A stretch of 63,809 nt of DNA, filler included, from Hausera hauseri (taxonomy: Eukaryota), in assembly GCA_046269625.1 (NCBI GenBank). It is 10 parts of 10 records of this genome, joined end to end, with 100 filler letters (N's around TTAATTAATTAA, not from the genome) between each part and the next. Parts side by side here need not be neighbours in the genome. Positions count along the whole stretch, not along the records: positions 47,033 to 54,690 come from JBJURY010002569.1; 9 more parts are not named here. The stretch is one strand, 5' to 3'. How positions within the stretch are numbered: the first letter of the stretch is position 1; every line of letters begins with the position of its first letter. This document shows positions 1 to 58,900 of this stretch, piece by piece. Both the position numbers and the translations under genes were made by a program. The notes under the pieces were generated by a model, which was given only the letters and a program-made list of their open reading frames with translations, had not been told where the DNA came from and ran no database searches.

Positions 1-282
1 TTTCACTTACAGTATCTTCCATAACTTACCAATTTATTTCTATAGTATAATATAATTAAATAGTTTATATAAACTGAAATCCTGATTTATAATTGTTTAA
101 AACTAAATTACAAAACTTTGCTTTATCAAAAAGAAATAAAATAATAAAAGAAATAAAATATTTATTTACAAAATTATGTACAACTTTTCTATTTATAACA
201 ATTTTTATATAAAAATCTAGAGTGACGATACACATTGGCACCAGTTCTAAATTGTGTTCCTTCTTCCAACCTCTTTTCAGCT

Positions 283-5260: not shown

Positions 5261-5881
5261 TAGTAGGGGGAAAATGTTCGATTTTGCGCATGTGCCGAAT
5301 GATAGTGCACATTGTGCACTATCGATCCACGAAGTGCCTAACAATGGTGCCGTTAGGCACCGTTGCCAAGGGCACTTTTGCACTTTTCAATTATTGATCG
5401 CTGCACAGTGCAGTATTGATCGAATCAATCGGAACAAAGTGCTAATCGATAGAGCACATCAATGCGAATCGATTGGTGCACAGTGCAAGTGTGCAAAAGT
5501 CAATGATATTGTGTTTTTCAGTTTTCAAAAGTCGATCTTTGGGCCTCGAGACCGGGTGCAATCGCAAGTGCACTTGATGTTGTATATTAATGTGCAGTAA
5601 GAATTTAAATCGATTGATTGGTTTTTGAATAATTCGCAAGTGAGACAGAAAGCACATAGGCCTTTCCGCTATAAATATTAAATCAATGATATCAAAATGG
5701 TACATGTTCAGGCGTGTACAGTAGACGATGCACTTTCAATCAGTGCACACATCAAGTGTGTATTGATTATCGATCGGTGTGCAGGAGCACTTTCACTTTA
5801 CGAACTTTTGCAATTGTGCAGCGTAGGATTGATGGAATTGATTGGGATCAAGTGCAGTTAGATAGAGCACATCGAGATGCA
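5261..5881. repeat. Palindrome-rich repeat segment (GTGCAC/ATCGAT-rich), possibly the end of a non-autonomous DNA transposon
   Basis: Abrupt change of composition after the satellite. Perfect inverted repeats at 5301-5323 and 5334-5360. Diverged internal duplication of approx. 5385-5465 at approx. 5800-5881. Confidence 0.45.
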
Positions 5882-6165: not shown

Positions 6166-8834
6166 ATTTAACTTGAAGAACCTTGGAATGTGTCTGGTCC
6201 TTAGCTCCCTTGTACATTATGCTGCACTGTAACGGCTTCCTGTGATCAGCGTGCGTCGGCTGAAAGGTCAGAACAGACGTGGCATTCCACTGGCCTGCAG
6301 TGAGCTGACTGAACATTTGATTCTCTTTTCCAGAGTGACTCCATTTGAAAACAGGAGGAGAGAGGGGGCAGAAGTAGGACACGGAACAGGTAGCAGAGAC
6401 GGTTTCCTCCGCCTTCATCTGGTCTTTCACAGAAAACTGGATGGGCTCTGGCTCACCTGCATCCAAGTAAAAGATCAAAGTGACTTCAAGTGTCTGCACA
6501 TGCAAGGAAAGAGGAAGCCTGTTTCATTTAAAATGAAACCTTAGTTTTATTAATAATAAGAGAGAAGAGATTTTGTCTCCATGAACATTTTATACTTAAA
6601 TCTATGAACACTTGGAAATACTGGCCTCATGTTGTTCTTTTCTCTATTTTACCATAAGTTGTTGCTTTTGACACATGAAAACATTTCATGTGTTTATAAC
6701 ATTTTTAACTTAAGCATGTCGCCATTTTACTGACGCAGTGCATTCTGGGGATCATAATAGGTTACAGTTGAAACTTAAATATAAAGTCAAGGCTAAACAG
6801 TTATAAAGCGGGATGATAAATTTGATTTTTATTAGTTTTTATGTTCTCCACAATATATGTAAGCTCCCAAGTTAATAATAGTGTTATCTGCAGAGCTAAT
6901 ATCATTTGCTCAGCAGCTAAGAAATATAACTTATATATATGTGAATATTAGTTATATAATTAACACTATATCACCATATATGTATATATGAGCTCAGGAG
7001 CTTAATAAAAGCTAACAAGCTAAAGTTGAGGTGAGACTTCAGTGAAAAAGCTCTTTTGTCCTCCATCCCCATTTTCAGTTTTGAGTCATTTCTATTTCAT
7101 CAATGTGCTCCGAAACCAGACATTGTTTAAGATTAACTTTCAAGATGGATTTAGCTCACAACCGAGCATCTAGTAGGTGTTATCATTTACCAAGTATGCT
7201 TTGCATCCTAAATAATTTGGCCATCTCCGTGTGACAATACGTTTTTAAAATTTATTAGACCATAACAGCTTAGAATGTTTTACAGTCTCGATTTTGTAGT
7301 TGAAGTAAATGTTTATTAAATAACGTTGAATTTTACAACTGGAGTTCCCTTAAGAGAGAAACTGCAGAGGAGAGATCTCAATATAGAAATGACAAAATCA
7401 GTTCATCTTCGCTTTTGACTCAAAATTTGGTGTGATATTTGTGTTCTTCATGTCAGTTCTCTGAACATTACATCTTGTGAGATCTCCCAATATGATTTGA
7501 AATGACATATCTCACATTCAGTGAAAGTCACAAATCCTTATATTGCTCAAAAATAAAACTTTAAACATAACACTTAACAAAACATAAAAAAGAATAAAAC
7601 TGGTTTATTTAAGAGGTTTTCCTTAAAACAATCAAAAACTGTGCCAGTTTAATATTTTTTGTTCAATTTCAAGGGTTTAGGTTCAGTAAGGTTCCTTAAA
7701 GTCTGCACCATTTCCTGGAAATCTTTTGCATATGTATAAAAAATAAAAAAAAATGTGAATCTAAACATAAAATGAGGAAGAGAAATTCGGGCACAAACTA
7801 TAATTAGTTGTAAACATGACCCCTTTTATATATTTACAGCTTAATGTTTTCTTTACTCGATGAGATGAACAGAGAAATGTGGTTTGATATTATATACATA
7901 AAACTATATTTGATTTCATTGTTTAAACTTTTCATTTAATTTTTTTGCACATGTATTATCTCACCATCTACAAGTTTTTACCTTAACTTGAGCTGTTGCC
8001 CCCCTTGTGGAGGTCCAATTTTTGCCTTCTTGTAGTGATCTTAGTTTAAAACTCTGGCATGAAAGGTTGTGGGTGAAACACATTCCATCTAAAAAATCTA
8101 GGCCAGGGGTCTTCCTGTGACTCTGGGGTCACATGCCGCCCTTTGGTCCCTATGCAGCGGCTCTGAAGTTTTGACCAAAATGAACAAAAGGCTACATTTT
8201 TCTGTTTTTTTTTTATATCCACAACAGAAAAGGCTAGCTTTAGCAGTTTTACTGTCAATATGGTTGCAAATAATGTGATTAATACTGTCAATAAAAGAAG
8301 TAAAACATGTTGTTTAGTATATTTACTTACTCAACACTGAAATGGAGACTCTTTCACTGTAGGAATAACTGTCGAAGTCCTTCATTTCAATCCTGAACCT
8401 GAAAGGCCCCGTGTCACTCGACTGAAGAGGATCGATCATCAGAGTGCAGTTTTGATTCTTGACGTCTCCCAACAGCTTCGTTCGACTCCTGTAGTTCTGC
8501 TGTATCTCAGATTGTTGTGGGTGAAAGATGGGGACTGTCTCAACAAACCAAATTCCTTTGAACTCAGTGGGGGGCTTCGTTGGATTTGGGTATGAAAAAG
8601 AGCACGGGATCACCACGCAGGACCCTCTCAGACCTTTAACTGAGGATGGCATCGCAGATTTCCATAAAGTAGACTCACTGTCAACAACTGCAATAAAGTG
8701 TAGGAACAAGTGATGAAGTAAAAGTTTCAGAACTAAATCTGATCTAGAGCTGGACCTATATTTGATTAAAAAAAACAAACCATACCTTCACTCAAAAAGC
8801 ATGCACAAAAGAAAACCCAGCCTGAAGCGCCCAT
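6166..8834 (-). CDS. Teleost-type Siglec / myelin-associated-glycoprotein-like gene, 5' part: signal exon 8834-8786, V-set Ig exon 8687-8331, C2-type Ig exon 6456-6166
   Basis: All three exons have GT/AG boundaries in phase 1. Signal exon MGASGWVFFCACFLSE. V-set exon WKSAMPSSVKGLRGSCVVIPCSF...NCTLMIDPLQSSDTGPFRFRIE carries the Siglec F-strand Arg. Second Ig exon ATCSVSYFCPLSPPVFKW...SVLTFQPTHADHRKPLQC. The gene runs off the contig end. Confidence 0.9.
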
Positions 8835-17161: not shown

Positions 17162-19560
17162 TCAACAGTTGGTTATTGTCTGTACGATTTGTCGTACTCG
17201 ACAGAACAAATTGGACCCGAACTTTCTTGATGCACACGCCAATCTCGGACATGTATTTATAGAAACAAAAATATTCGATAGAGTCGTTGCAGCGTATTAC
17301 AAAGCCCTATAATTGGATTCTGATAATCCCATTTTGCACGAGAACCTTGCATGTGTTTATTACGAAGAGACGGTACGACCTCGCCATCGATAGTTATAGC
17401 AAGGCAATGGAACTACAGCCGAATTTCCCAGACGCGTACTGTAACCTCGCCAATGCACTCACAAAAAAAGAAACGTCACGAAAGCTGAGAAATGCTACAA
17501 CACTGCTCTCAGACAAATCCGAATCACGCAGATTCATTGAACAGCTTGGCCAATATCAAGTGGGAGCAAGGGCTGAACGAGGAGGCTATAAATCCATACA
17601 AGAAAGCACTAGAAATCTACCAAGAATTCGCCGTTGCCCATTCCAATCTTGTCAGTATGTTGCAACTGCAAGGAAATTTACAGACAGCACTCAGTCACTA
17701 TCGTGAAGCTATACATATTTCCCCGAATTTCGCAGATGCTTACTCGAACATGGGTAACGCATTTAAAGAACTACAGGACCTCCCCAATGCACTCCAATGC
17801 TACCAACGGGCAATTCAAATCAAGCCAACATTTGCCGACGCTCATTCCAATTTGTGAAGTGTAAACAAGGACACTGGCAACATCAATGAGGCCATTACAT
17901 CGTACACGTCTGCACTCAAAATAAAGACCAATTACCCGGAGGCGTTTTGCAATTTGACCCATTGTCTGCAGATAGTGTATGACTGGGCAGATTATGATCT
18001 GCTTATGAAGAAATTGGTACGGATAATCCACAAGCAACTGGAGCAAAGGAGATTTCCATCGGTACATCCTCTTCATACTATGTGGCATCCTCTGACACCT
18101 CATCAGAGGAAGGGCATTGCTGAAAGTCATACAAACTGTACCTGGACAAAGTTGCTCCACTCCACAAGCCAAACTACATGTTTGACAAGCATTTTGGTGG
18201 AAAACGTTTGCGAATTGGCTACGTCAGTTCCGATTTTCATAGTCACCCAACAAGCCATCTGATGCAAAGTATTCCCGGAATGAACGATAGATCACGACTT
18301 GAGATTTTCTGCTACTCACTTACATCAGATGACGGTACATCATTCCGACAGAAAATTCAGATAAAGGCAGAATATTTTGTGGGTCTTACAGCAATACCAA
18401 ATAACGGCGATGCTGTCAATCGTATTCCCAATGATAAAGTGCACATTCTCGTCAACATGAACGGGTACAGGAAAGGTGTACCAAACGAAATATTTGCACT
18501 GAAGCCGGCACCAATTCAGGTCATGTGGTTGGGATACCCAGGAAAGGGTGGTGCTAGTTACATAGATTACATCATGACGGATAGTGTCACATCTTCAACT
18601 GAGTATGCCGATGATTATTCAGAAAAATTGGCATACATGTACTATACGTATTTCGTCGGTGATTACAAACAGATGTTCCCTCATCCTACTAACCAGGTTA
18701 TCCTCAAAATATGGGGTTACAATAGCAGATTCAATTTCATCAGTGCATGTGGGTCCAATATCGATCAGATATTTCGTCTGGGTTGTGTGCAGGACTGCAC
18801 ATCAGTTAGTTTTTCTGTTGTGATGTTGGATTCGTTTCATGAGATAAATGACATGATAACAAACAAACGTGAGGTGACAATGATCAACGGCATCACCGTC
18901 ATCAACGGCACGGCCACCACAGAGACCGTTGAGAAATTCGCTGGAGAGAAACATCCATCGAACATCATCATCACATCTAGAAAACATTATAATTTACCAG
19001 ACAATGAAGTCGTGTTCTGCAATTTCAATCAGCTGTATAAAATCGGCCCAGAAACACTTCGCATGTGGGTGAAAATACTCAAGAATCGTCCGCGATCCGT
19101 TCCATGATTGTTGCGATTTCCCGCTGCCAGCGAAACAAACGTGTTCAAGGCATTTTCAGATTTCGGTGTAAAAGATGCGCACTTGCGTTTAATTTTCAGT
19201 GACGTTGTACCAAAGGAGAAATATATGCGACGAGGACAAGCAGCTGACATTTGTCTGGACACTCCTTTATGTAATGGACACACGACAGGAATGGATATTT
19301 TGTGGTCTGGTTGTTTAATGGTCACGTTGCCGGGGAGACATTGGCTAGTCAAGTGGCTTCCAACTAGATGAACACCCTCGGTTGTCCAGAAATGATAGCA
19401 GAGACAGAGGACGAGTATGTCAGTATTGCAGTAAGACTGGGTACTGACCCGAAATTACTGGAATCTGTCAGGAATAAGATATACACGCAGTATGGAAAGT
19501 TTATATATGGAGATCTCGCGGGATGCTGATAATAAAAAACAATCACAGAAAATTACTTGA
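17162..19560 (+). pseudogene. OGT: O-GlcNAc transferase pseudogene (TPR array plus catalytic domain), no introns seen, several frameshifts and stops
   Basis: TPRs ([26 protein letters not shown]), [83 protein letters not shown]-terminal YTRSMESLYME follows a short deletion. Confidence 0.95.
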
Positions 19561-31447: not shown

Positions 31448-34400
31448 CTAATAACTGCGACCAAACAGAGTGAAATACAGCGGTTTATTTTCACAGTCTT
31501 CACGAACGCATTTATTCCCAAGACCAGCCGGTTGGTCCAGTGGAATACACAAAGATTTCGCACCCATTGCCGGAGCACCTTCTTCCACGACAGCATTTCC
31601 AGCACTAATTTCCTTGATAGAATCTTCACATTTCCTATCACCACAGAACGGTGCCAAAATGAGCATTTTCTTATCGAGTGCCGCCGACAAATCCTTCAAA
31701 TTGTACGCAGTGATGATGTGATCATCTTGTTGTCGTTTCGCCTTTGCAAACATCTCCTTATGGATCGTGTCCAATTTCTCTGGCACCAATTTCTCCACAC
31801 TCTCATCCGGGATCGACTCCTTCACTCCATTGTACCGATAACACAATACGACCTGCTGTTTGACCAGATCTTTCGGTCCAATCTCCAATCGAATCGGGAC
31901 ACCTTTCAATTCCCATTGATTGAATTTCCATCCCGGTAATCGATTATCATCCAAATCAGTAACGACACGCACACCAACAGATTCCAATCGCTGACAAATA
32001 TCGTTGCATTTATCGAGCAATGTCTGTTTGTCATCATCAGTTGACTTGACTGTAATTCCACACGGAATAATGACAACCTGTACATCAGCAACCCGCGGTG
32101 GTAATACAACACCCTTATCATCACCATGGACCATTACAGCCACACCAATTGTTCTTGTTGTCATTCCCCATGAATTCTGATGAGCATATTCCATTGATTG
32201 GTTCTTATCCGTAAATCGAATGTCGTACATTTTACTGAAATTCTGACCCAAATGATGAGACGTCGCACCCTGAATTCCACGACCACTGCCGGCAATGTAC
32301 ACCTCAGTCGTTGTCGTGAAATCTCCACCGGGGAATTTCTCCTTCTCCGTTTTGCGACCCTTAATACAGGGAATGGCCAGAAGATCCTCATAAACATCAG
32401 CATAAATGTCCAGAATTTCGTACACCTCCTTCTCTGCGTCAGCTCGATTTGAATACGCTGTGTGTCCCTCCTGCCATAGGAATTCTCGTGTTCGCAGGAA
32501 CGGTGTCGGCTGTTTGAATTCCCATCGTACGACATTACACCATTGGTTCAATTTCAATGGCAAATCACGATGGGATTTGATCCATTTAGCGTAGTACGGA
32601 TACATGACCGTTTCACTGGTTGGTCGAATTGCGATATGCTCCTTCATTTCCGTATCTCCACTTTTCGTTACCCATGCTACTTCCGGTGAGAAATCTGCAA
32701 TATGGTCCTTTTCTTTGTTCAGATTGGATTTCGATACGAATAATGGGAAATAACATTTCTTTACACCGAGTGCCTTAAATCGTCGATTCAAATACGACTG
32801 AATGTTATCCCAGATCTCACACGCCCACGGACGTAGAATGTAACATCCGCTGATGTCGTAATACTCGATCATTTCGCTCTTTGTGATTACCTCGATGTAC
32901 CATTGAGGAAATGAATCAGCCATTGACACTTCCAAACCCAATCTTGTTTGTTTCTTCAAATTTGCATCTACAGATATGTCAGTTGGTTCCTCGAATTCGG
33001 CTCCTTTGGGTATCTTCTCTTTTGACTCTTGTGCTTTATTCTCTTTCTTTTTCGTTTTCTCATTCTTTGCACCATCCCCACTCTTTGACTTCTCAACTGC
33101 AGCAGTGTTGCTCTTGTCGACTTTCTTCGCTCCACCAGCCGGTCGTTCCTTCTTATTACCCTCAGGAATATTAATCAACACTAACGGATATTCTCTACCA
33201 CCACACTTAGTCGCACTGCCGTATTCCTCATCACAAATGAAATATCCTTTCCTCTGCAACTGGACAATATCGCCTTTTTTCAAATTAGCCAATTCAATAT
33301 CGCCATATAAACAGATTTCTTCTTTCGATTCTTTATTAACGTACTGTTTGAAATCATCATCTTTATCCAACAAACTTTTCGATATCAGTGAGTCATAGTA
33401 AACCGTTGAGACCGGTATGTCAAATAACTGCCTCTCCTCATTCTCACCCAATGGCAGCCACGTTACTTTTTGGGTCTTTTTGAAATCTTTGTCATCCAGA
33501 TTCAATTCGGCATTAACTGATTCGACGGTACCATCTTTTGATTTGTTAATCTTGTTTATTTTCAAATTACCCCAATTGATAAATGTAACATTCGTTTCTT
33601 CAACAAAATCGGCTGCATCGATTTTTTCAACGAGAACATGCGGACTGAACCAAATTGATTTGTTACCAATTTCGGGATTCTTCGGATGTTTTGCAACATC
33701 GGACTTGGTAACTGAATTTTGTCCAGCAACATGAACAACGACGTGATCAACACCACCTGCCAATATGCCGGTATATCGCGGAACGATGGCATCAATAACT
33801 TTTTTATTGAATGCCCAAATTTTATCCCATTCCATAAATACAACAGAGCGACCGAAACCCTGAGAAAGAATAAATTCCTTCAGTCCTTCGATAGTCAGAC
33901 CATGACGAAGTATTCCTCGGACAGTTGGCATACGAGGATCATCCCAACCACTAACATATCCCTGATTGACAATCCATGTCAATTTCCGTTTAGACAAAAC
34001 AGTATTTTGAAGAGATAATCGACTGTAATCTGATATTTCCGGTTTGCGTAAATTGAGCATATCAAGAATTCTATAGAACTGTTCGTTACGATCGTTGTAC
34101 TCGCTCGTCCGCAATGTGTGTGTCACACCTTCGATACTGTCGACAATTGGACAAGCAAAATCGTAGGTCGGATAAACGTTATATTTATCACCGGTTCTGA
34201 TATGTTTTTCTTTTTTGCAGCGGTAAATTGTTGGATCTCGCATACAACCGTTTTTAGACTGCATGTCCATTTTAATTCGGATGCAATATTTCTCACCAAC
34301 TTTTGTCCCGGCTTTCATTTCTTTCCATAAGGTCATGTTTTCGTCAACCGACTGATTACGGCACTTGGAAATTATACATTGTTCACGTTCTTTTCTCATC

Positions 34401-35092
34401 GTTTCGGAATCTGTATTATCGGCATAGGCATTGTTGCTGATTATTAACTGATCACAATAATTCATCAATTCATCGAAATAATCTGATGTGTATGTCAGAG
34501 CGTCGTACGTAATGCCAAGACTTTTAACATCCTCTAAAATGATTTTTTCAAATTCTTCGGATTCTTTTGCCGGATTGGTGTCATCAAATCTCATTATCAA
34601 TTTTCCATCATAATTATCCTTATAATGCTGGTTGATTAACGCTGCTTTGGCATGACCGATATGCAAATAGCCACTGGCTTCCGGAGGGAATCTAACGACC
34701 ACTTTGCCTTTTTCGGCATTTTTCAATGGTATAAACATACCTCCTTCTTCAAATTTTACGTTGCTAGCCAATTTTTCTTGAGCAACTTCTTTTGGCTTTT
34801 TTAACTCCCGTGGTTTTTCGATTTGCGATTTTACATAATTTTTAATGTCGGGTAACGAAGATAAAAAATTCACATATCGTTCAATATTTGACGAAACTGC
34901 CTTGTTTTTCAAATCATTCATAAACTCAGCATTTTTGATTAAAGTAGAATAAACAATCTGGTCAGCTTCAGTAAGACTGTCATTAACTAGAAAAGTTCGA
35001 AAACGAATATTTTCCTCCAGCTGTAAAATTAGATTTGAGAAATCACATCGTTTGGCTAACTGTTTCCAATTTTCAATTTGTAATTTATCCAT
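31448..35092 (-). CDS. EPRS: Bifunctional glutamyl-prolyl-tRNA synthetase, 1214 aa, single coding exon, no WHEP repeats
   Basis: GluRS: RFPPEASGYLHIGH, RFDDTNP, YPTYDFACP, VLSKRKL, GWDDPR. ProRS: KKQTRLGL, IRPTSET, VRWEFK..PFLRTREFLWQEGH, QGATSHHLGQNFS, C-terminal FGRSY. The ORF is intact. A probable 56-nt 5'UTR intron spans 35150-35095. Confidence 0.98.
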   Translation of the reverse strand: MDKLQIENWKQLAKRCDFSNLILQLEENIRFRTFLVNDSLTEADQIVYSTLIKNAEFMNDLKNKAVSSNIERYVNFLSSLPDIKNYVKSQIEKPRELKKPKEVAQEKLASNVKFEEGGMFIPLKNAEKGKVVVRFPPEASGYLHIGHAKAALINQHYKDNYDGKLIMRFDDTNPAKESEEFEKIILEDVKSLGITYDALTYTSDYFDELMNYCDQLIISNNAYADNTDSETMRKEREQCIISKCRNQSVDENMTLWKEMKAGTKVGEKYCIRIKMDMQSKNGCMRDPTIYRCKKEKHIRTGDKYNVYPTYDFACPIVDSIEGVTHTLRTSEYNDRNEQFYRILDMLNLRKPEISDYSRLSLQNTVLSKRKLTWIVNQGYVSGWDDPRMPTVRGILRHGLTIEGLKEFILSQGFGRSVVFMEWDKIWAFNKKVIDAIVPRYTGILAGGVDHVVVHVAGQNSVTKSDVAKHPKNPEIGNKSIWFSPHVLVEKIDAADFVEETNVTFINWGNLKINKINKSKDGTVESVNAELNLDDKDFKKTQKVTWLPLGENEERQLFDIPVSTVYYDSLISKSLLDKDDDFKQYVNKESKEEICLYGDIELANLKKGDIVQLQRKGYFICDEEYGSATKCGGREYPLVLINIPEGNKKERPAGGAKKVDKSNTAAVEKSKSGDGAKNEKTKKKENKAQESKEKIPKGAEFEEPTDISVDANLKKQTRLGLEVSMADSFPQWYIEVITKSEMIEYYDISGCYILRPWACEIWDNIQSYLNRRFKALGVKKCYFPLFVSKSNLNKEKDHIADFSPEVAWVTKSGDTEMKEHIAIRPTSETVMYPYYAKWIKSHRDLPLKLNQWCNVVRWEFKQPTPFLRTREFLWQEGHTAYSNRADAEKEVYEILDIYADVYEDLLAIPCIKGRKTEKEKFPGGDFTTTTEVYIAGSGRGIQGATSHHLGQNFSKMYDIRFTDKNQSMEYAHQNSWGMTTRTIGVAVMVHGDDKGVVLPPRVADVQVVIIPCGITVKSTDDDKQTLLDKCNDICQRLESVGVRVVTDLDDNRLPGWKFNQWELKGVPIRLEIGPKDLVKQQVVLCYRYNGVKESIPDESVEKLVPEKLDTIHKEMFAKAKRQQDDHIITAYNLKDLSAALDKKMLILAPFCGDRKCEDSIKEISAGNAVVEEGAPAMGAKSLCIPLDQPAGLGNKCVREDCENKPLYFTLFGRSY

Positions 35093-35745
35093 ATCTAAAA
35101 CCGAAACGAATCACGGATAAAATGAAAACAAGAATAAAATTTCATCATACCTGCTAAGTCAAAACGTCAACCTCAAACAATTATTTAAACAAAAGTTATT
35201 TAAATATAAATTTATTAAAATCATATTAACGGATATTTTGATGTTATATTTTTTGACAAAAAGTTATGACTCCGTTGCTATGTATAAATGGCTTGAAATA
35301 TACATGACAAACAAACAATTTTAGTCTAATTTACTGATATACTGGGTTACATTTGCATTTGTTAAAATTCAATAAAGCCTTTGATGTTGCTTAATGAATT
35401 TAATAACCTAAGCATACCCGTCTACACACTCAATAGAATTTTAAAAATTTGAATCCTAACTGAGTATCTAACGCCACCTTTAGTTAATTTACAGCATATA
35501 CCCGTCTCTAACTCTAAGAATGGGAGTGAAATTGTGGAACACTTAAAAATTACAACGTTTTCAATTTGTGTACAAAATTATTATTTAAATTTAATTTATC
35601 AATGCAACCTTATATAATTATACTATATATTATTTCAAACGAAAATAAACACAGAGCAATATCTATTTTAATCAATCATATTGAATTCAAAGTTTACAAT
35701 AATTTTCTCAGAAGTTGATTTTTAAAAAATTCAGTTTTCTGACAA

Positions 35746-45240: not shown

Positions 45241-47032
45241 TGTTGTAGATAAGAGAAAATTGCCTGACAGTATCAATAAATATATCCACTGATTGGGAAA
45301 TAAGCCATGTACTATTAAAAAGCTACAAGACAATACCCAGTTTATGTAACATCTTTTTGGCAGTCTTATTAATCTCGATATTTCACTAGACAATAGGAAG
45401 AATCTACTTGGTTTACTAAGGAAGTTTTGCACTATTGTAAATTCTCTGCAGCCTACACAAAAGAAACCCGTTGTTGCAACCAACATCTCACCTGCGATCG
45501 TCAAGTACGGCATGACGAAACTTCCTGATGCTCTTTTCGCTGCGCAACCAGAGTTGCCTGGTTGAGGGACCGAAAACGCCCACCTCTTATGCGCTCCAAC
45601 ATTCCCCCGGCATAACGTTACATCCCCTTTCCTTTTTTATTTTTCGCAACAACCAACACGTGTATACACTAGATGCAACATACAAACACTGCACACACTC
45701 TACTTTTCATTATTTTCTTTCTTCGGCACCTCCGACTTTTACGTCATGCATAATGGTTTGACCTGGTTCTCTTCCGATTCTATCATCCTTTGCATTTTGC
45801 AAACATCCAATCATTCATCTCACTCTCCATTTTCTTATAGTTTTGTGAACATTGACGAAACTATTATAACCAGTCCAACATGACAAGCAAGCCTATATTC
45901 GAACAGACTCAATTTTATAATTGAGTTTCATTTCATTGAATATTTTATAATGAAGATTATTTGATTCTATCATGACCTTCGGAAATTATACTTAATTTTT
46001 CTGGTGACATTGGATAATTAATTCTCCTTTGTTGGTATTTTTATGTCAGAAAATTTGTAATATAGACAGTTAAAATTTGTGAAATTTTTTGACTTTTAAA
46101 CTTTGACTCTGGCTTCTGACGCAATTATGATCCAACGTTTTCATGATGGTTGTAAGTGGTCTATTATTTTCATATCACATTTTCAATTGTCAAAATAGTA
46201 TAATCTTCTCATCATTTCATAGATTAAAGACTTATAATTTAATTTCGTTTTGCTTTGTTTTTGTTAAATTTTAATTTACGAATTTAGACACTAAGTGAAC
46301 CGTATAAGTTTCTGATTAACTGAATTTTTATATCTCGCAAGATAATTATTGGGTTGTAATATAAATTCGTTCGTATTTTTATCATTTATTTAATTAAATA
46401 TAATTTTTTTTTGGGTTGAGACTTCTAGGCAAATGTTGCGCAAACCAAAAAAACAATGTTTGGTATGCTCTGGTCCATTTGTTTCACTAGAAGACATAAA
46501 TACTGTCACATTTTGATGTATTACTAGCACGGTTATCTTCTAATTGAAAGGCCAGGGTGTGACCCATCGACTGTGTATCTTTGGACTGAACACCCGTTAC
46601 CCCCAATTTGCCTATTCGTGCATGATTGAGAAGATGAAAGTGCTGTATGTTGTGGGGTTTCTAGGCTTCGCTGACAGATAATACTGTATTGGAGGTTCTG
46701 AGTGGCAGTGCGGAGCAAATCACCAGCAGCTGTTTCCAGTTTCCCGTTGAGGTTCCTCTGGTATTTCAGACTGGTTGGCGCTACTAAATTTTATTGAAAC
46801 TTTGTCTATAATGGGACTGTGTCCAGCTTTAACAAAAACCCTGATCTACCTTTAATTCCACTAACCTGGGTTCTCCTGTATTGTTTGTAGCTAGTGCTTT
46901 CAGTGTCTTGCTCCTTGGATTACCCTGAAGTTNNNNNNNNNNNNNNNNNNNNNNNNNNNNNNNNNNNNNNNNNNNNTTAATTAATTAANNNNNNNNNNNN
47001 NNNNNNNNNNNNNNNNNNNNNNNNNNNNNNNN

Positions 47033-48290
47033 AAACATGCGATTGAAACCAATATGTTTGACGATGTATCTAAGTCAGTATTATAAAATAAAAAAGAAAT
47101 CGATTCATTTCTGAAGTTTTTGGCAAAGAACAAGTCGTAAATCGAGGGATACATCGAATAATAGATGACACAGCGGGAGAAGGAAAATGGGATCGATTAT
47201 GGACGCCGGATGCCTATAACAAAATTATCTTAAATTTGTGGTACAAAATGTGGGTAGGATTTCTAACATTTGGCCAAGTAGCCTCAGCGTTTCTGGCAAT
47301 CAATTTCATTATACAGACTTTAAAAGTTTGTATTAACTCTGTGCTGAATGCTTATGATATCTACAATCTAACGGGACTATCGCTAAGTATAACACATGCT
47401 TTATTTTTCCCAGTCGGTAAATTTATCAAAGCCTACCATGAGACACAGTGGCGAGGTAAATTAGAAAAACATGTTAGTTACAAATCAGAGAAACAATTCC
47501 CAAAGGATACTTCATCAAGCTCATATGACGGTACTGCCCCTAGGTACTATCCTACAACAGGAATTCCTAGAGACAAGAGAAGAAAATTCAAGTTTGCGAA
47601 GCTTAAGCGAAAGGATAAGCACAAATTGCCTGATGCACAGTATGAAAGTAAAACAATGCCTAATTTTAAATTATCCAATCTAACAAACTTAACGGACCCT
47701 TATGCGAAGAAAGAAAACTACATAAAATTATATAGTTTGCCTAAGTACTCTCAAGAAGAGATACGTCAATTCAATATTACGCAAAATATGAAAAATAACC
47801 GAGTAACGTTACCAGTATCACCTAAACTGGGCATGATACCGCAGGTATCTTGTCACCTAGTAAACAGGTGGATAAAAGCTCAACCAGATAGGAAATCCCA
47901 TTATACAATTCCATCAACTAAACCCAGTAATGTGCAACAAAAACATCAAAATATTTAAGCTGTTATCCAGAATTGACTGAACTCAAAAACAAACCAAAAT
48001 GATCAGACAATGATACCCAATATATGGAAAATTTAAGGGTCATATTAGTTAACGGGGAGGCTAGATACTGTTTAGCCAGTTATACTTTGATGAAACCTCA
48101 CATAGATGATAACAAAAACGTTCTAAAATTTCTCGAACTACTAAGAGATAATCGACTTCACACAACAGTTCATTTCGGTACTTTTGACCGAAACGCTATG
48201 GTGGATACGGGAGCTAGTGTTACGTTAATAGCGAAGTAGGAAATTCTGGAAGAATTACAATCTCAAATAAAATTAGCCACCAAAGACTCA
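47033..48290 (+). mobile_element. Retroelement fragment: C-terminal part of a chuvirus-like envelope glycoprotein followed by aspartyl protease-like domain(s)
   Basis: FGKEQVVNRGIHR...LWTPDAYNKIILNLWYKMWVGFLTFGQVASAFLAINFIIQTLKVCINSVLNAYDIYNLTGLSLSITHALF (membrane region). Degenerate PQVSCHLVNRWIKAQPD..SHYTI. Clear retropepsin motif NAMVDTGASVTLI at approx. 48192-48230. Confidence 0.6.
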
Positions 48291-48933
48291 CTTGGTACTG
48301 TGGTGCCGCGGTCGTGGACGCGTTTCGTTTTCTCGACAAAGTGTTGTTTGTAAATCTCAAATCATTGAAGCAGAAGCTCAACAATCTCTTCAACATATCA
48401 GAAAATCATAATATTTTGGACTCATTGACGAATTGACATTCAGCATGCAAATCATCCGCAGAAATTAATCGAGGAGAAAATGCAGATATTTACCGATCTA
48501 ATCCTGATAAAAACGACAAATTCAATATTTTAATTCTGGAATGAAATGACAATTACCAGTGTATAAAACATGAATGTTTCTGTTTTCTCTACAGTTTTTT
48601 CTTTACACGAACGTTTAATGTATATAGTTTGTTGGCTAACATATTAGTTTATATATGTAAATATGTTTGTAAATTTTCTGGAAATATGTATTGATTTAAA
48701 ATAAATAAATAAATAATTTGTGATTCAAGACATTTCATTTCTTGTGGATTTATCTCTTCTATCTCGTCGTCATTTTGGATTTTTTTCTAATGAAATTACT
48801 ACCCATGTCCTTGAAACCACATTGGTGTCAGAACGTTATACAGCAGAAAACTATGTATTACCAACAAGTTACAGAAAGTCTGTCAGCAAAAGAGATTAGT
48901 TTTTATTCACCACTTACATTTACCGATGATACA

Positions 48934-50875
48934 ATGTTTTCTGGGACATTATCAAATAAAATTAAGGCTAGCAAATTTTCCAATTCCGAACCTCAGAGTA
49001 CGTCATCGACAAGTAGTAAACTACTGTTAACAGTTTTATGCCAATTCTGTGGCCAATTTCATGGAAAAGATTTACCACATCTCTATGATTACAATGAATC
49101 AGTTGATTCAACATTATTGTGCATTATTTGTCATCAACCGATAGTCGATCCAATTGATACAAATTGCGGTCATACATTTTGTAAACCTTGTCTGAATAAA
49201 CATTCATCAATTCAAGCGTTGTGTCCCGTTGATAAGAATATAATCAATTCTCAGGAGTGCAAACAGGCATCCAATATCGTTAAAAAATTATTGGATAAAT
49301 TAAAAGTTGTTTGTCCAAATGTGGATTATTGTGAAGAAATTTTATATCGAATGACTTATACCAGTATTTAAAATTCAAATGTCGTGGGGCATTCAAAAAA
49401 GAAATAATCAAAGATAAAACTCAGATAACTGAAGGTGAGCTATGTGAAATAGAAATAATCCGTGTTAATCAATATGACCTTGGGTTCTCTTTTGTCGGTG
49501 GAGTGAACTCACCTCTAAGATGTATTGTTATTCAAGAGATGTGTTTGGACGGATTGATTCCCCAGGATGACAGATTACGTCCTAGTGATCAGCTGCTTTC
49601 GTTAAACGGAATCGACCTCAGTTCAGCTACACACGCTAAAGCGAAACGTGCCCTTTCAGCGCTAATACCGAGGTGTAAATTTGTGGTATTACGCGAATGT
49701 GTTCCTGTTTTCACTGAGCATGAGACGATAGCGGTTGTTCTTTCAAAGAAAAATGATTCACGGTTAGGTATTGCTCTGGATACAAAAAAATATTACGAAG
49801 GTATATACGTACGAAATGTTATTCCCGGTAGTGAGGCTGACATAAATGGATCATTTACAAAAGGCGACAGAATTTTATTTATTAATAATGTTGATATTAC
49901 AAACGAATTTCAAGAGTTTGCTGCAAAATTAATAAAAGAAGCTTCAGTTGATATTTCATTTGTTGTTCAAAGGAGACTGAGTGTTCCCGATGTTGTTAAA
50001 ACCAAAGATGACAGAATTTCCTCAGGGAGCTGGAGCACGAATCAAATGTCAAAAGGTTGTCATTCTGAAATGATTTCTCGGCGACAAGTTGTAACTTTAA
50101 GTAGCAAATGTTCAGAAACTAACAGTCCTAGATCGTACTTTCAAAGTAGAAACACATTTGATACTCAATGGCCGACAGTTGACAATTACCAGAAATAAAA
50201 TTTACAGCCGCAGTTTCCTACGAATGTTCTACGCATTCGGAAGGAGCCAAATGAATCGCTTTCAATTACTGTTGCAGGGGGTTTAAATTCTCACCGCGGT
50301 GACAGTCAAATATACGTTACAAATATATTTCCAAATGGTGTGCTTCACCATTATAAAAGGATTAGAAAAGGCTGTGTATTGATCGGGATTAATCAATACA
50401 CTTCACTTCACTTGTCTCACAAAGAAGCTGTTGATACATTGAAACATGAGTGCTATGGTCATCAGCTTGTTGATCTTCATTACCTTGACGGTCCAGAAAC
50501 GAGTTCAGGTGCTGGTAATTTTATGCCAAGCTGGAAATTTTGGCTCCAGTTACCTTTCTTTTGTTCAAATCCGAAAATTGTTGAATTGAAAAAAAAGAAT
50601 CACCAAGTGTTAGTTTAGGATTCAGTATTGTTGGTGGAATTGATTCAGCTAATTCTATTGACGCAGGGGGCTTTGGGACTAATTTCATTATGATTAAAAC
50701 CATTTCGCCTGGCTCAGTTGCTTGTAAGAACGGAAAATTAAAATGTGGAGATATACTCCTCGAAGTGAATAATACCTCTTTGATGAGTGTTACCCACAAC
50801 GAAGCAGTACTGTGTCTTAAGAAGGCAGTCAATCGTTTTTTTAAGATAATCTCTTGGCCTGGAACTATCGTTTAA
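48934..50875 (+). pseudogene. LNX: LNX1/2-type RING plus 4-PDZ E3 ligase, full length, no introns seen, at least two frameshifts and one stop
   Basis: CQFCGQFH...HLYDY..VD..LLCIICHQPIVDPIDTNCGHTFC, KLLDKLKVVCP, EGELCEIEI...LGFSFVGG, four PDZ domains, F.PSW..WL.LP, C-terminal SWPGTIV. Confidence 0.92.
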
Positions 50876-51039
50876 TGATGATGGTTTTAGTCATTTTGAT
50901 ATTTATGGTCTCAATGATTCTTACGCGTATATTAATTCTGTCTTTCACAAATATTGATTTCACATTTTAACAAGTTAATAAAAGTTATAATTGTATTTGG
51001 ACTTAATCTTCATTTCTTGAATTATATATTACATTTGGA

Positions 51040-52255
51040 TAATTTATGTCAACTTTACAAATGGTGTCAGATATTTATAAAATTCTTAATACAAAACGAT
51101 GCACAGTTTATTCAAGAAAATCACATCCAGCAGCCTTGGAAACATTGTTTGGAGTTCTTTTTAAACATCCCGAATAACGAATAGAATAAACAGCATACGA
51201 AAAATTTTATGAATACTTTAATAAAGATGTTGAAGTATGAGAATGAAGAAAATGCAAACATCTGCGTGAAACTGCTGTTTGATATTCATAAATCTCAATG
51301 TCCTAATTTTTCCAATGAAATCCTCCAATCCTTAAAATTCGTACGAAACGTATATAAAGAATTACAGAATCATACAATCAAAATATTTGCTCAATCTCCG
51401 TATTATGAAGTTGACAATATCGAAGAATTTTCTTTGGAAACAAAGATTTTGGAAACGTTTACCGTCACAAAAACCTTTACGATTCAAAAGGACAATAATG
51501 GAAATCGAATAGAATTTAATCTTATCCCAAAATCGTGTTACTCATTGAAAGTAATGCAAGAAGTCCCCGTTTTATTAGTTTTAATGTACCAATTTCATAA
51601 GTCATACGTTTCGAATGAAATTCTTTTATTTATCCCATTTATGGACCTTTTAAATCTCGTTCCGACAGACGCCCAAAAATGATTTACAGTTCAATGAAAG
51701 TCTATATCTGCATTTTCTGGCTGCTCAATTGAAAGCGTTGTCCTTTCTGGCATGTCGTGAAAATTTTCAAGAAAGCATTGTTAGAGAAACATGCTGATAA
51801 TTTGGTTTAAGGTGTATCAAAGGATTGTCAACATTCCGTCGTACGTTACGGAAGGAGTATTTCATTACAGCTCGACATATTTTAGCAATTCAGGAAATTA
51901 AATCACGATTGCCAGAATTAATGAATGAAGACATTCTCATAGTAAATGGGTTTACAGTTTATCGGTTACTAAGACCAATGGCCTTTAGCACATTAGCTGA
52001 TATAATCCATTGTGTCAAAAACGAATTAAGTTTACCAAAGCAACCAACATATACATCAGCAACATGCATGATGATACTTTGGTTTTTAGTATTCAGCAAA
52101 TGAGCTTAAAATTGTTACTAAATTTAATCGAACCAATAAAAAATTGTGTCCAAATTTCGGCTGATGCCCAGCAAGGTCGGCAAATACTAACGAAAATTTT
52201 GCATGATTTTGTTAAACGACTGGGAAACATCGGCAAGTTTTATCTCCCAAGACTT
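51040..52255 (+). pseudogene. TRRAP: N-terminal fragment of TRRAP/Tra1
   Basis: QFIQE..QQ..K, ENEENANICVKLLFDIHK, IPKSCYSLKVMQEVPVLLVLMYQ, LRKEYFITARHIL, LRPMAFSTLADIIH, IQQMSLKLLLNLIE. About 400 codons with frameshifts. Confidence 0.9.
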
Positions 52256-53094
52256 GGAAAAGAAAGTTTAATCGAATGTATTAAAAAACGAAAAAAAATG
52301 TTGTAAAGTCCGTCGGAGAGGCAACACGGCTTGATCGAGAAGAATTTGAAGCATTATTTATAGTTTTCAAAGGTGTTTATATTGCACCCAGTTGTTGCAC
52401 AACCCATTTGTTGACGCTCGCACCAAATATGAACAGTTATGATCCTGTCCGTCCATATTATGATGCCTGCAAAATAGATTACGAACTCTTTGCCAGGTTG
52501 TTCAAATGTCTTTTACCCTGGGGATGTCCTAATTTTATCTCATTGAGGGTTTTCCGTTTGCTCGATTTGAATCTGGATAACATGTTTAATTTTAAAGAAT
52601 TTGCTTGGATAGTTGGTATCGTACGCATGTGCACTTTGGAGGAAAAATTGAGATTCTTATACCGTCATTATTATAGACCTTGTCTTTTGCCTGGCGATGA
52701 AAAACTATTGAAGAAATCGGAAAATGTATCGTCAATGAAACCTTGGTGTAACTGTCTTGATCACACAAAAAGTGACGGTAGTCATGAATTCGGAATAGAA
52801 CTAACGGAAGCAATGCTTGAATACATTCCAGATAGTGATGAAATAAATAAAGAAGCTAAAGATGGTTTGCCCAAAAAGCCAGAAAAGAATGAGAATATCG
52901 AAGTCAAACCGAAGGTTTCGAAATCACGATCAAAAACTGCATCTATCAAAAATACTTTCCATTGGTTAAAAGACTCCGATAATTTACCAAACATGCAATA
53001 TAACGATATGCTAGAATCGTGGACAGGTCTCTACGATTTTGTAGCTAATAGTGATTCCATGAGCAACACAGTCTCTTCCATGCTTAAAGATTAG
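52256..53094 (+). pseudogene. C-terminal (EF-hand) fragment of a TBC1D8/TBC1D9-family RabGAP
   Basis: KKNVVKSV...EEFEALFIVFK, YDPVRPYYDACKIDYELFARLFKCLLPW, RVFRLLDLNLDNMFNFKEF, LEEKLRFLY. The GRAM and TBC domains are absent. Confidence 0.85.
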
Positions 53095-55295
53095 AAACAC
53101 AGGAAAAGCTTTATAACTTATCTTGTAAATACACACACTGAATTACGATTGGTAAAGAAGCGAGCCGAAGAATTACTTTTAAGGCAAGTGTTATAAAACA
53201 TTTCAGGATGATCACCAAGTCTTTGCATAGAATTTTATGGCAATACTTGGTGGTTCTTTTGTACCGTTGTTATTAAGCGTCAATATATTGAACGCATATA
53301 TCTAATAAATGTTATTGAAGAAACAACTTTATTGCTATGGAAATGTGGACAGTAAACAAACATTAAAAATCGAATGTATGGGTAATTTATTGTGTTATGA
53401 ACACAAAGATTTTCAATTACTTTAAATAAGTGGTGCTTAAAATGTAGTCCGTGGTTAATTATTTAGGGGTCCGTGAACTAGCGTCTATTATTTTATAAAT
53501 GTTGTAAGTGTTATGTAGACATGTGTACATCAAAACGTAGAACGGAAACAATATGAATGTTAAAGCTGATTATCGGCTTCACCTCACCAATGTTTCACGA
53601 AATATTTTTCATCTTTCGGCAAAAAAATCAATCACATCTCTCCAACTGAACTAATGATTTCATTGTTGTATTTACAATAGACATTGATATCAGCTATTTT
53701 TATTAACAAAACGGTACTAATTGCTTTGCAAAATGATCGTTGTTTCGGTGGCCCGCTTAAGAATATTATGGATTTTGGGTATCCTTTTCTAAAATAAATT
53801 TAGGAACCATTGTACTATAATAAATATAATTGAATCAAATACTGGATTACCGTTTTATGCTCATTCTATAAACCGAATTTGAACATATTTCACATATGGC
53901 AGATGTTTTATACTTGCAGACAGATGATTGAATATTGATGTCGTTCTTTAATTTCCGGTTCTGTCCGACGTTTTCTTTTGATAAGAAATATAATAATTTC
54001 TTTAGTTTGTATACGTTTAATTTAGCCGAGTACTTTTTATTATTCGTATTTCTATGATCTTTTGAAATACATGGTTAAAGTTGGTTAACATTATCTGCTT
54101 CATCAAACCCATACTTTGCGTTAAGGGAGAATTTTATCTTGTACGTTTTTTGTTATAAATCAAAAAGACAAATATTTGTAAGATTCTTAAGAAATAAATA
54201 ATAGATATTGCCAAATTATATGACTAATCATATAGTATGATTATCCGAGTAGAAATTGGTCATACCATTTATTTTTATGACGAAGAACCGTTTTTAGGTA
54301 TTTTTAAATTCACAGGAAAATATCTTCATGCGACATTTTCATTATATAATCCACTTGTAACCATTGATACGTTTTTAAATAAGAAAATTAATTTTACGGT
54401 AAATATGGGTTTCTATCAGAAAATTATCAAAGAGGTGCGAAATTTATGCTGAAAACTAATATGAAAATTTTTTTCCGAGAAGCCAAATTAACGCATTCAG
54501 AGCCTTTAAATGTGACGTCATTTCGCATTTGTTCAAATCTGCCCCATTACGTTTAGGAATTTTAAGCTTTTACAAAATTTTCATTACTTTTCTCGAGTTA
54601 ATATTCTTTTAATATTCGATCGTATCTTTTATGTTCTGATGAAATAAAATACCCATCGAATATAGTCTGTGATCACTCATGTGCATAGCCNNNNNNNNNN
54701 NNNNNNNNNNNNNNNNNNNNNNNNNNNNNNNNNNTTAATTAATTAANNNNNNNNNNNNNNNNNNNNNNNNNNNNNNNNNNNNNNNNNNNNATTGAAGGAC
54801 AAAAGTTTACAGAATTCCATTCACAGTTTCCCGAGTTGCGAATGACGACGTATTCAACAACATCGAACAACTTGCTGACGATGGTACCTGACAATATCCG
54901 ATGTCCGTATCGTGATCATGGACCACATTGTGCTTACAAAAAATGTCCACGGCTTTGTATTGACTGTTTCATGCAAATAAATAAATATATGTACGTATTT
55001 ATTTCTTTCTGTTCATGACATATTTAGCAGTATTGGTCAGTTGAATAGTTCAAATACCATAAATACGGGTAGGTTATAATAATAATAATCATGGACTATA
55101 ATGGAAATTGTACACATTACGAATGACTTCAGTAACATTGAGGTAATTTGTATCATTCTGATGAGACAGTACTCACAAAGTAAATATCTATTGTTTGCTA
55201 TGAAAGCAAACCGGTATGAACAAATTTCATATAAATAGAGATGCAATTTCATTTGACGTGTCTTATTTAAAAATGTCTGGAAAACAATTTAGCAG

Positions 55296-55918: not shown

Positions 55919-58900
55919 TTATTCCAAACGCCAATGTCCGTATGCCCAACTCTTATTCCGCTTCACCCACTTACGCTTATCATCATTGCATGATAAAGCG
56001 ACTTTTGAACTGGTCACCGTATACAGCTGGTGCTCAATTGATTGGATGATCGTTTGTGACACAACAGCCTTTGATTGTCCTCCGTCTCCTGCTTCATAGA
56101 CACGGCGATAATTACCAAGGTCGATTTCCATCTAGGCCAACTGAACTGTTTTGGCGCGCATTTTCGGTCCACAGTCAGTTAAAAGGCTATAACATTTTGG
56201 TCGTAGAAATATCCACTCCCTATACTGAAGCCGACCTTCACTTTTATTTTTGAAGCAGCCAATTTTGTTTATGATTGCGTTGCTGTACAATGGATGATTC
56301 TGTGGGTAATTGGACGTGTCCAGTAATCCGTCTGCCATCATTTGCTGCAATAGTGGTTCGAGATTGCCGTTTTCCAGTTCCAAGAAAAAACTGTCTGTCA
56401 CCGACAATTATATTGATCCTGCATCTGCCGCCGCCGATCATTTGCCGGTAACGTGCCAAATCGTGATACTGCAGCTCATACATTCACAACATGCTCAGGT
56501 CCAATACCACTTGTCCTATATAATTTGATCGGTCCAGTACGACTTCTCTGTTTAAAAGCACGGTAACCAATCCATCGGCAATGTGCATTGACTGCCTGAA
56601 ATGTGCCTTGCTCGTGTGCGTAACCAAGCGCTTTTCGCTATTGCATTGGCGTACATTGTGCCGCTTTTTCAGATTCTCCACTGGAAATGTTTTTCAGCTT
56701 GTAATATTCCTTTTCGAACTTTGTTCAAGCTTCTGCCCCTTTCTCCGAATTTCTATCTATGTACGCCTTGAAAATTGGAACTTGAGCAAATCGGATCGCA
56801 CGATACAGCTGTGTGACGCGTACACCCAACTGAATGTAAAATTGCACCGGACGCCAATTATCTGTAATTTTGCTTGGGTTCATGCGTAATAAGCAGCTTC
56901 TTCACCTTCGAGCCCGGCGTACATTGATTGGTGCGACCGGTAGTTTATCCAGAAAGTCATGCAGCTCATCTGGTACCACGAGATTAACCTTTATCGGGTA
57001 TCCGATTGAGCTGTTTTCTGCTGTTGTCGTGTCTGCTCTCGACACATTTTCCAGTATTGTGTTCAGGTCCTGTTTGTTAACTACCCATTCGAATGAACCG
57101 TACGGCAAGGGTTGTGAAAGCGCCCAGCCGTACAGATTACTAATGTCGATATACAACAGTGATGTGGTATCATTACTGGTTACGTGATGCTTGTTGACAA
57201 ATGTCATGCCGCTGCGAATACCAACATCAAACATTCGGTACATATCCGGGTCTTGCAATGGCGCTATATCACGATCTAGTGACATCAGAGTTGATGCCCA
57301 ACTCATTTCGGGTATTGATTAAACGTTGAGTGGCTCCAGCCTATCTTCTGCCAACGCTTTCGCTCGAAACGCCTGGAACACATTGGCTAATAAGTACACG
57401 TCCAGTTTAAGATACTGGTGCATGTACTCCAACATGTTTCTACAGCCAAGTTCTGTCCAAGATTCTTGTGCTCTATGATATTATTCTTCTGTGATGCCTG
57501 TCCGTTGCGGCGGTATTTCCTCTGCTGTCCGGAGTCGCTCATATGATGTTGCAAAGTCATGGAAATATGCCTTTGCTGCGTGCAGTGTGGGGAACTGCGT
57601 TGAGATTATCGGCACATCCGGCAAGGCATTTACCAGCTTCACCAGTGATTCATTGAGAAATTGCAATGAATCAAGGAAGAGTACCTGGAACCGGTTTATG
57701 CGTGCTAACAGGGACAGGTACTTCTCTATTGTTGTTTGGATTATGGACAGTTCCCAGTGCCGAAATCCGTTGATGGCCCATTTAAGTATATGGCGGCAAT
57801 CATAACCTCGGAAATTATGAATGATAACCGGTAGGAATGGCCGCAAACGCCTTGTTAAATTGCATGCGTTGCATGCTGCTCCCAAGTATCGTCCGGTGAA
57901 ATGATCATGGTCCGGTACGAGCCGTTCCTGTGCGTCAAAAGGCTATTTTGTGGCAGAGGTAATATTCATCGGTAGCAGCGAAAAGCAGCGGTTTATATTC
58001 GTCTGTTTATATCAAGGGCTTAGTGCTATTATTACTGTACCATGGTGCGATTTTCGTTTTCACTATCGTTTTCAACTGTTGCAGGAAATCGCGTATACAG
58101 TTCCAACCATGAAAAACGTATTATTGCGGTTGTCCGGCGGCTTTTGGTCGTATACGTTGTGCCGCGGTAGGATTGCTTTGATATCGGCATATACCACATA
58201 TGCCGGACTGTCTGTTTTCGACCAGTCACTGAATCTCAGCTCCTTTTTGACTGACATGACGTACATTGTTGCTTCTGATGAATTTTGTCTGCACAGCGCC
58301 AAATGTTTTCCCATGTCGTTTTTGGCCTGAAACCATGCAGACATGTAGGACATCATTTACAATTTATAAGCTTTTTGATGAATTGGTGGTGATCCATGTT
58401 CAGCAGTCTGTCCAATTTGATTACTGCCACGTAGCGACATTTATCTCCTTGCTCCAACAGCAACAAATTTACCGAGCGTCCATTCGGGTTCCGACTGCGA
58501 TAAATTATATCCACGTGTGGCTTTTTGTATATCTCTTCATCTGCCGGTATTTCTACGATTGTTTTGTACCGGAAAACGTTGATTGCCATAGTAGGATTAC
58601 GCCGTTCAAATGTCGGGATAGATTTCAGTTTCATCGGCATCCAGCTTTCATCAAATTCCAATTCGGAAAAATACTGCCGATACTTCTTTGGACGATTTGC
58701 ATGATTTCTAACCACTTCGTCGTATTTGAATATAGCCAGAATACTGTAAATAAAACAGTATTCGTCGTCGGTATTTTTTACATTCGCTACCGACAGAGAT
58801 TGCTTTAGAGCTGCTGGTGTCGCTATGAATGATTGCCCAGACAATTATATCATATCATTCAACTTTGTTATGATAAAGCCGAGAGTTGCAATTTTTATAA

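Follow-up and report, generated by a model that had tools for sequence, protein, structure and literature searches.

A truncated envelope glycoprotein and protease fragment, probably a decayed copy of a GAG-ENV-POL/Burro-like Ty3/gypsy retroelement

Introduction

Does a short piece of DNA in which the end of an envelope glycoprotein (G) precedes a retroviral-type protease represent an undescribed kind of retroelement, a known kind, or two unrelated fragments that happen to lie side by side? The question was raised by an earlier, sequence-only reading, which proposed a retrovirus-like element with a class III-like fusogen ahead of one or two proteases, possibly within one polyprotein, and considered it a candidate for an undescribed system. 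The window that we analysed, 63,809 nucleotides in length, consists of short animal contigs chained by linkers of 100 bp (44 N, 12 bp, 44 N), and contigs that adjoin at a linker are not adjacent in the genome. Our analysis indicates that the piece probably derives from a multi-copy Ty3/gypsy LTR retroelement of the GAG-ENV-POL/Burro-like kind with an in-frame env-pol design, as a copy that has decayed and been truncated at both ends. Membership in the GAG-ENV-POL/Burro-like Ty3/gypsy family, taken by itself, is very probable, and this placement is based on G, about 115 aa with identities of 23-36%, and on 45 aa of protease.

Results

The contig that carries the element spans positions 47033-54690, and the piece analysed begins at the first base past a linker (Table 1). 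Linkers of the same type are found at several sites of the window, and position 47033 is a contig edge, not an element end. Because the linker severs the element at its 5' side, the sequence 5' of it is foreign to the element; a Pfam scan of the three forward frames of 45899-46932 gave zero matches. The element piece is only about 1.3 kb long, stopping near 48290, and it is decayed at both ends, with in-frame stops at 47089 and 48237 in addition to a stop at 47956 and a frame change. The contig was found to contain no gag, RT, integrase, LTR or PBS, and when the proteins of two relatives described below (L001 and P0029) were compared with 47033-54690 by tblastn, only G was matched, with no RT, RNase H or integrase. 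Likewise, self-blastn of the contig within the window revealed neither a second copy nor an LTR, and no Pfam match was obtained in six frames of 48290-48801, just 3' of the protease. This copy has lost RT/integrase, the greater part of env and half of the protease, and what is left contains stops and frame changes, so that it is incapable of the function that we propose for its family.

Table 1. Features of the element fragment and its borders, in window coordinates.
Feature	Position	Strand	Remarks
Contig-joining linker	46933..47032	.	44 N, 12 bp, 44 N; element's 5' side severed here
C-terminal end of HSV-gB/chuvirus-type (class III) envelope glycoprotein	47092..47511	+	PF24664, 46.8 bits
Hydrophobic transmembrane stretch	47254..47346	+	aa 55-85 of the ORF; Kyte-Doolittle 19-mer peaks 1.4-1.85
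Basic/low-complexity linker	47512..47832	+	In frame with G; no family match
Possible decayed first protease motif, unproven	47833..47913	+	D codon 47887; score 1.7
N-terminal half of retropepsin	48156..48290	+	VDTGAS, D codon 48204; frame differs from that of G; ends near 48290
Repeated segment, nature unassigned	48291..48824	.	Summed contig depth 216-688; 3' of the protease

The glycoprotein lies in a stop-to-stop ORF of 288 aa (47092-47958, +). Residues 29-140 of this ORF match positions 516-630 of the 653-position PF24664 Monjiviricetes_fusion profile with 46.8 bits (E 1.4e-12, cutoff 27), and the top Atlas clusters for G also gave PF24664 (0.93). The piece comprises the membrane-proximal helix, the transmembrane segment and the start of the tail; it has no start codon and is broken upstream, at the same-frame stop at 47089, with tblastn homology starting at 47095. 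A phmmer search of the ORF against 1.84 billion representatives returned 26 matches (best E 6e-7), every one of which is above the PF24664 cutoff. G therefore does not match a cellular membrane protein, a match that had been named as fatal to the proposal, and the reading of a membrane-proximal glycoprotein end was borne out. The motif quoted for it is indeed present, except that four residues, not three, separate FLTFG from AFLAI. The basic linker described as continuing in the G frame was found as well, with 15 K+R versus 5 D+E over ORF residues 140-200; at about 150 residues after G it is longer than a plain tail.

Several other searches, with G or with its relatives, added no relatives. 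A word-index search with G residues 1-150 found nothing among 93 candidate proteins of 505-2000 aa, nor did one with the alignment of the relatives among 2190 candidates of 2770-5000 aa, a length range set by the longest row of the alignment. IMG/VR yielded no relatives of P0007 or of the relatives' alignment A3. The sole match in a PDB sequence search with the relatives' alignment, huntingtin (E 0.011), was rejected as spurious, and an hhalign match was set aside as circular, since alignment A3 includes the window row.

With regard to the proteases, the earlier description of a stop and a frame change followed by a clear VDTGAS retropepsin proved accurate: the ORF ends at the stop 47956-47958, and the D codon of the motif is at 48204 in another frame. 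Using a profile built from 12 protease domains of the relatives P0004, P0007, P0011 and P0029, we found this site to rank 1 of 98,514 six-frame positions of the window, with a score of 31.5. True domains in a leave-one-out test scored 30.3-47.0, while the other gypsy proteases of the window reached 13.9 and 13.8. By Pfam alone the match is only E 0.08-0.18. An HMM covers positions 3-46 of 108 (nt 48156-48290, 19.2 bits), the stop at 48237 falls inside the domain, and the best local match is the RT-proximal protease of L001 (E 0.002).

The degenerate protease-like motif that had been read 5' of the stop fared less well, and is not significant by sequence. The site with its D codon at 47887 scored 1.7, placing it at rank 70 of 98,514 and 2 of 714 locally, where about 0.5 such sites per 714 would be expected by chance; the HMM did not detect a domain at this site, with 896 of 1000 shuffles reaching as high a score. 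It is located 209 codons after the env FGQ motif, and the clear protease about 315 codons after it. In the relatives, the corresponding distances are 192 and 324-326 for the first two proteases of P0023/P0029, 201 for the first protease of L001, and 145, 149 and 388 elsewhere. The spacing of the 47887 site thus resembles that of the first protease of fused relatives, a post hoc likeness that we take as a hint only. Of the "one or two proteases" claimed, one retropepsin half stands and a second one in this copy is unproven.

We then considered whether the order G-protease recurs. Four of the 26 homologues (P0004, P0007, P0011 and P0023) have in-frame retropepsin Pfam matches 3' of G; the other 22, many of them short fragments, have no downstream protease. 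P0029, a cluster mate of P0023, is a 4844-aa ORF with G, seven protease stretches, ankyrin (at cutoff), a C2H2 finger, RT, RNase H and integrase. A metagenome scan with 298 pattern matches led to a single locus, L001, where one natural contig carries a 5'-open ORF of 3426 aa (L001:2-10282) encoding G, three proteases, RT, RNase H and integrase; no Pfam match was obtained in its initial 469 aa. The retropepsin motifs number seven in P0029, three in P0007, two in P0023 and three in L001, and two of those in P0029 are 3' of the integrase. By eye, both P0029 and L001 have additional hydrophobic segments. A weak Bcl-2 match (E 0.2) is found in P0007 immediately 5' of G, within a segment alignable to L001. 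P0005 was not counted as fused; it has a DSG motif 5' of a G end and no Pfam protease match. L001 also has a separate ORF after the polyprotein (L001:10617-12107), with an RNase_T exonuclease match of 26.1 bits at a cutoff of 24, which would make it an accessory nuclease of an env-before-pol element.

The central claim of a G upstream of a retropepsin in a retrovirus-like element is upheld, and in the window copy the two lie on the same strand. As for the suggested single polyprotein, it holds for P0004, P0007, P0011, P0023, P0029 and L001, which are in frame, whereas the window copy is out of frame.

The fold of the glycoprotein was approached through L001, whose G was modelled from an 18-row alignment (pLDDT 70, pTM 0.44); a single-sequence fold was poor (pLDDT 35.7) and was not used. 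Against the PDB, every row listed for this model was herpesvirus gB (best E 8e-12, TM about 0.3), with an rmsd over 20 A, so that the likeness in domain arrangement is loose. Against BFVD, the model matched chuvirus-like glycoproteins (best E 2.5e-33). The predicted class III fold is thus that of the relative's G, and the G of the window is classed by its PF24664 match.

In a tree of G ends (29 rows, 117 columns), the G of the window is sister to five protease-fused rows, with unstarred support (96/69; SH-aLRT 69), and falls within a starred clade of nine rows (100/97), apart from the 20 other rows. By path length its nearest rows are the stand-alone G proteins P0019/P0028/P0024. It is divergent, with an end branch of 1.26 and an identity of at most 29% over 115 columns.

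Lastly, we looked for other copies in the public sequencing run X1, which may be the window's own source sample and has 3574 contig records on 47033-54690. The summed depth was 216-4008 in every bin of 47033-48824, compared with 3-6 for exact-match contigs; summed depth is not copy number. Up to 53 X1 contigs had different letters at one G position. Two diverged contigs, differing at 48 and 53 letters, extend over 47800-48091 and 47872-48197; since they bridge both parts, the junction of ORF tail and protease start is present in other copies as well. Among 8 pieces listed of 3610, no single X1 contig runs from the transmembrane segment to the protease. A one-base length difference near the ORF end is common to five contigs, and the depth differs about tenfold between G bins and protease bins. 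Whatever the intactness of its copies, the element behaves as a multi-copy repeat in its host.

Discussion

The out-of-frame protease raises the question of whether env and pol were ever joined in this family. It is conceivable, and in our judgement improbable, that the family is the same but encodes env and pol in ORFs of their own (GAG / ENV / POL), the stop at 47956 and the frame change being original. Both are present in the sequence, the three rows at the shortest path distance are G proteins with no protease after G, and GAG-ENV-POL is taken as an order of ORFs in the parts of PMC13524379 that we draw on. Against this, the linker exceeds a plain tail, its spacing fits the linker-to-protease distance of the fused relatives, breaks are to be expected in a copy decayed at both ends, and the length difference of one base in five X1 contigs lies near the ORF end.

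A piece of an endogenised chuvirus-like glycoprotein might also have come to lie by chance beside an unrelated gypsy protease in a repeat-rich contig. Arthropod chuvirus-like glycoprotein fossils are commonly flanked by fragmentary Gypsy copies, according to the sections of PMC10084718 consulted, other gypsy fragments do occur in the window, and the tenfold depth gap in X1 would fit two separate pieces. We nevertheless consider a chance junction very improbable, as the order, strand and similar spacing of G and protease recur in five proteins and one contig from elsewhere, the protease scores as in the fused relatives and not as the window's other gypsy proteases do, and diverged X1 contigs link the ORF tail to the protease start. 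A one-off adjacency, which the earlier reading had named as a possible refutation, is thus not what was found.

We give almost no credence to a BEL/Pao element of the Anakin type, in which env would follow pol and the protease would come from a nested or neighbouring element: PF24664-type glycoproteins do occur inside BEL/Pao elements (PMC7642597, in the parts used), but in the relatives G is followed by RVT_1, RT_RNaseH, Integrase_H2C2, rve and a GPY motif, no LTR-like break was seen between G and protease, and the earlier comparison with BEL/Pao elements probably pointed to the wrong lineage, the pol of the relatives being of Ty3/gypsy type by its domain set.

If the fragment is indeed from an in-frame Burro-like element, its family would express a single polyprotein in the order seen in the relatives: gag and accessory domains, an internal signal-like segment, a gB-type env ectodomain, a transmembrane anchor, a basic cytosolic linker, one or more retropepsins, RT, RNase H and integrase. 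An internal hydrophobic segment is discernible by eye 5' of G in the relatives. Such a signal would direct the env ectodomain into the ER lumen, and the env transmembrane helix would stop the transfer, leaving the protease or proteases in the cytosol, tethered to the env tail, from where they may free themselves and pol by cleavage. Env and pol would be produced at a ratio of 1:1, and the trimeric class III fusogen might mediate entry of particles into other cells.

How much of this is already known? The literature is cited here from the portions of each source that were accessible to us. In those of Chary & Hayashi (eLife, PMC13524379), elements of Nematoda, Bryozoa and Platyhelminthes have only HSV/gB-type env, in the order GAG-ENV-POL, with gB-type ectodomains between two membrane segments; GAG-ENV-POL elements are not monophyletic, and ENV-GAG-POL is given for two arachnids. 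The supplement includes 9 flatworm and 10 bryozoan elements, the 9 flatworm ones all from free-living species. In the main text, the terms polyprotein, in-frame and single ORF have no occurrence and protease has one. These "ancient errantiviruses", especially Platyhelminthes C1a (Schmidtea, Macrostomum, Prostheceraeus), share with our element a gB-type env 5' of pol and multiple copies, whereas all that is present in the window is a broken piece with a divergent G. The YQES motif of the fused relatives occurs four times in the env alignments of supplement 2, each time in Schmidtea rows; further likeness was seen by eye only.

Burro / GYPSM1 are giant gypsy-like planarian elements (Arkhipova & Yushenova 2019, PMC6431247) of over 25 kb; their polyprotein of 4,873-5,140 aa places env between gag and pol in a single frame, in the order BCL2-env-PR, and they have BCL2-like, ankyrin, BIR and other accessory domains. 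By HHpred, the Burro env is described there as gypsy-Env-like with matches to mononegavirus fusion proteins, not explicitly as gB. Compared by description, the Burro order fits P0029 (4844 aa, ankyrin) and P0007/L001 (Bcl-2-like stretch 5' of G). A single PR is named for Burro in the part consulted, as opposed to 3-7 DTG domains in the relatives; its gag, BCL2, ankyrin, size and LTRs are beyond the reach of a 1.3-kb fragment. Non-canonical nematode ERVs with flipped ENV-POL (Sacco et al. 2022, as cited in PMC13524379) likewise have an RNA-virus-type glycoprotein 5' of pol in a metavirus, in a different host clade. The mosquito BEL/Pao element Anakin (Dezordi et al. 2020, PMC7642597) shows capture of the same glycoprotein family by an LTR element, on a BEL/Pao backbone and not on the Ty3/gypsy one, with G 5' of the protease, that the relatives of the window's G have. 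Troyka was rejected as a match, as no Troyka encodes env (PMC12440569, in the part seen) and env is present here; the consulted parts of PMC8532177 and PMC12471100 contain nothing on env.

Consequently, the description of an undescribed system does not hold: both env-before-pol and the in-frame form are in print (PMC13524379, PMC6431247), and the fragment is most likely a further member of a published group. What would be new is the presence of 3-7 proteases per polyprotein in the relatives and possibly, though weakly supported, a parasitic-flatworm host. The literature searched, as far as accessible, contained no statement on multiple proteases in an env-pol polyprotein, but Grohme et al. 2018 may already describe several.

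We regard as a rather doubtful possibility the more far-reaching proposal of a distinct, high-copy Burro-like env-protease lineage in a fish-parasitic flatworm, in which tandem retropepsins (two here, 3-7 in the relatives, some of them after the integrase and between membrane segments) would cut a membrane-threaded polyprotein at different junctions, in the manner of alphaviruses. The literature examined, in the portions seen, has no description of such alphavirus-like processing for LTR elements. Were multi-protease polyproteins general, they would give LTR elements a novel strategy for expressing env and pol together and processing them; this point derives from P0007, P0023, P0029 and L001 and not from the window. 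As found, the fragment is one broken, divergent addition to the published group, and the multi-protease gB-type env polyproteins of its relatives are possibly the more interesting lead.

The host was judged from two other contigs. One of them encodes an intact, intronless Glu/Pro-tRNA synthetase (EPRS) of 1220 aa at 31451-35110 (-), which groups with tapeworms in two trees (99, 100), on the longest branch and with three cestodes as the only named flatworms. It has no WHEP match, as in the tapeworm protein scanned, and its identities are non-discriminating (GluRS 63.7% to a cestode versus 63.5% to fish; the best ProRS matches are not flatworms). The gene may be a sign of an intron-poor genome or a retrogene. 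On a third contig, 8326-8787 (-) encodes a vertebrate-like CD22/V-set Ig domain, reminiscent of a fish Siglec-type gene, and the window may mix vertebrate DNA with that of an invertebrate. Taken together, the EPRS grouping and the CD22 domain weakly suggest a fish-associated flatworm as host. In the screen of PMC13524379, 53 of the 55 flatworm rows are listed in the portion used, where only three free-living species are marked as annotated; none of the 48 parasitic-flatworm rows listed is annotated, and an ENV-POL env count appears in three of them, each of 1. If the host is a parasitic flatworm, the known range of such elements would be extended, and a high-copy enveloped element in a fish parasite would, if true, be a candidate vehicle for host-parasite transfer.

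Other content of the window

Downstream of the element, its contig contains gene pieces that are intronless, frameshifted and host-gene-like: RING and PDZ domains at 48724-50875, which we take to be an LNX-like gene, a Tra1/TRRAP central region at 51185-52306, and an ORF without Pfam match at 52285-53094. The PDZ gene and the last ORF look multi-copy, because their summed depth in X1 is mostly 27-99, against 3-6 for exact-match contigs; one X1 contig links 52389 to 53050. The pieces could be retrocopies or captured cargo; searching the Atlas with the PDZ ORF told nothing about the host. The same contig closes with a repeat of very high depth (8720) at 54457-54690.

Elsewhere in the window, two decayed ordinary gypsy elements with protease, RT, RNase H and integrase (21.6-25.0 kb, +; 37.9-42.8 kb, -) are unrelated to the G element and have no PF24664-like match. 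An intronless, frameshifted O-GlcNAc transferase-like gene (Glyco_transf_41) is located at 17263-19104 (+). Broken ORFs at 56905-58844 (-), two pieces of which were scanned without a Pfam match, read to us like a Polinton/Maverick-type protein-primed polymerase and its neighbours, and positions 325-5261 are occupied by a 42-bp tandem array.
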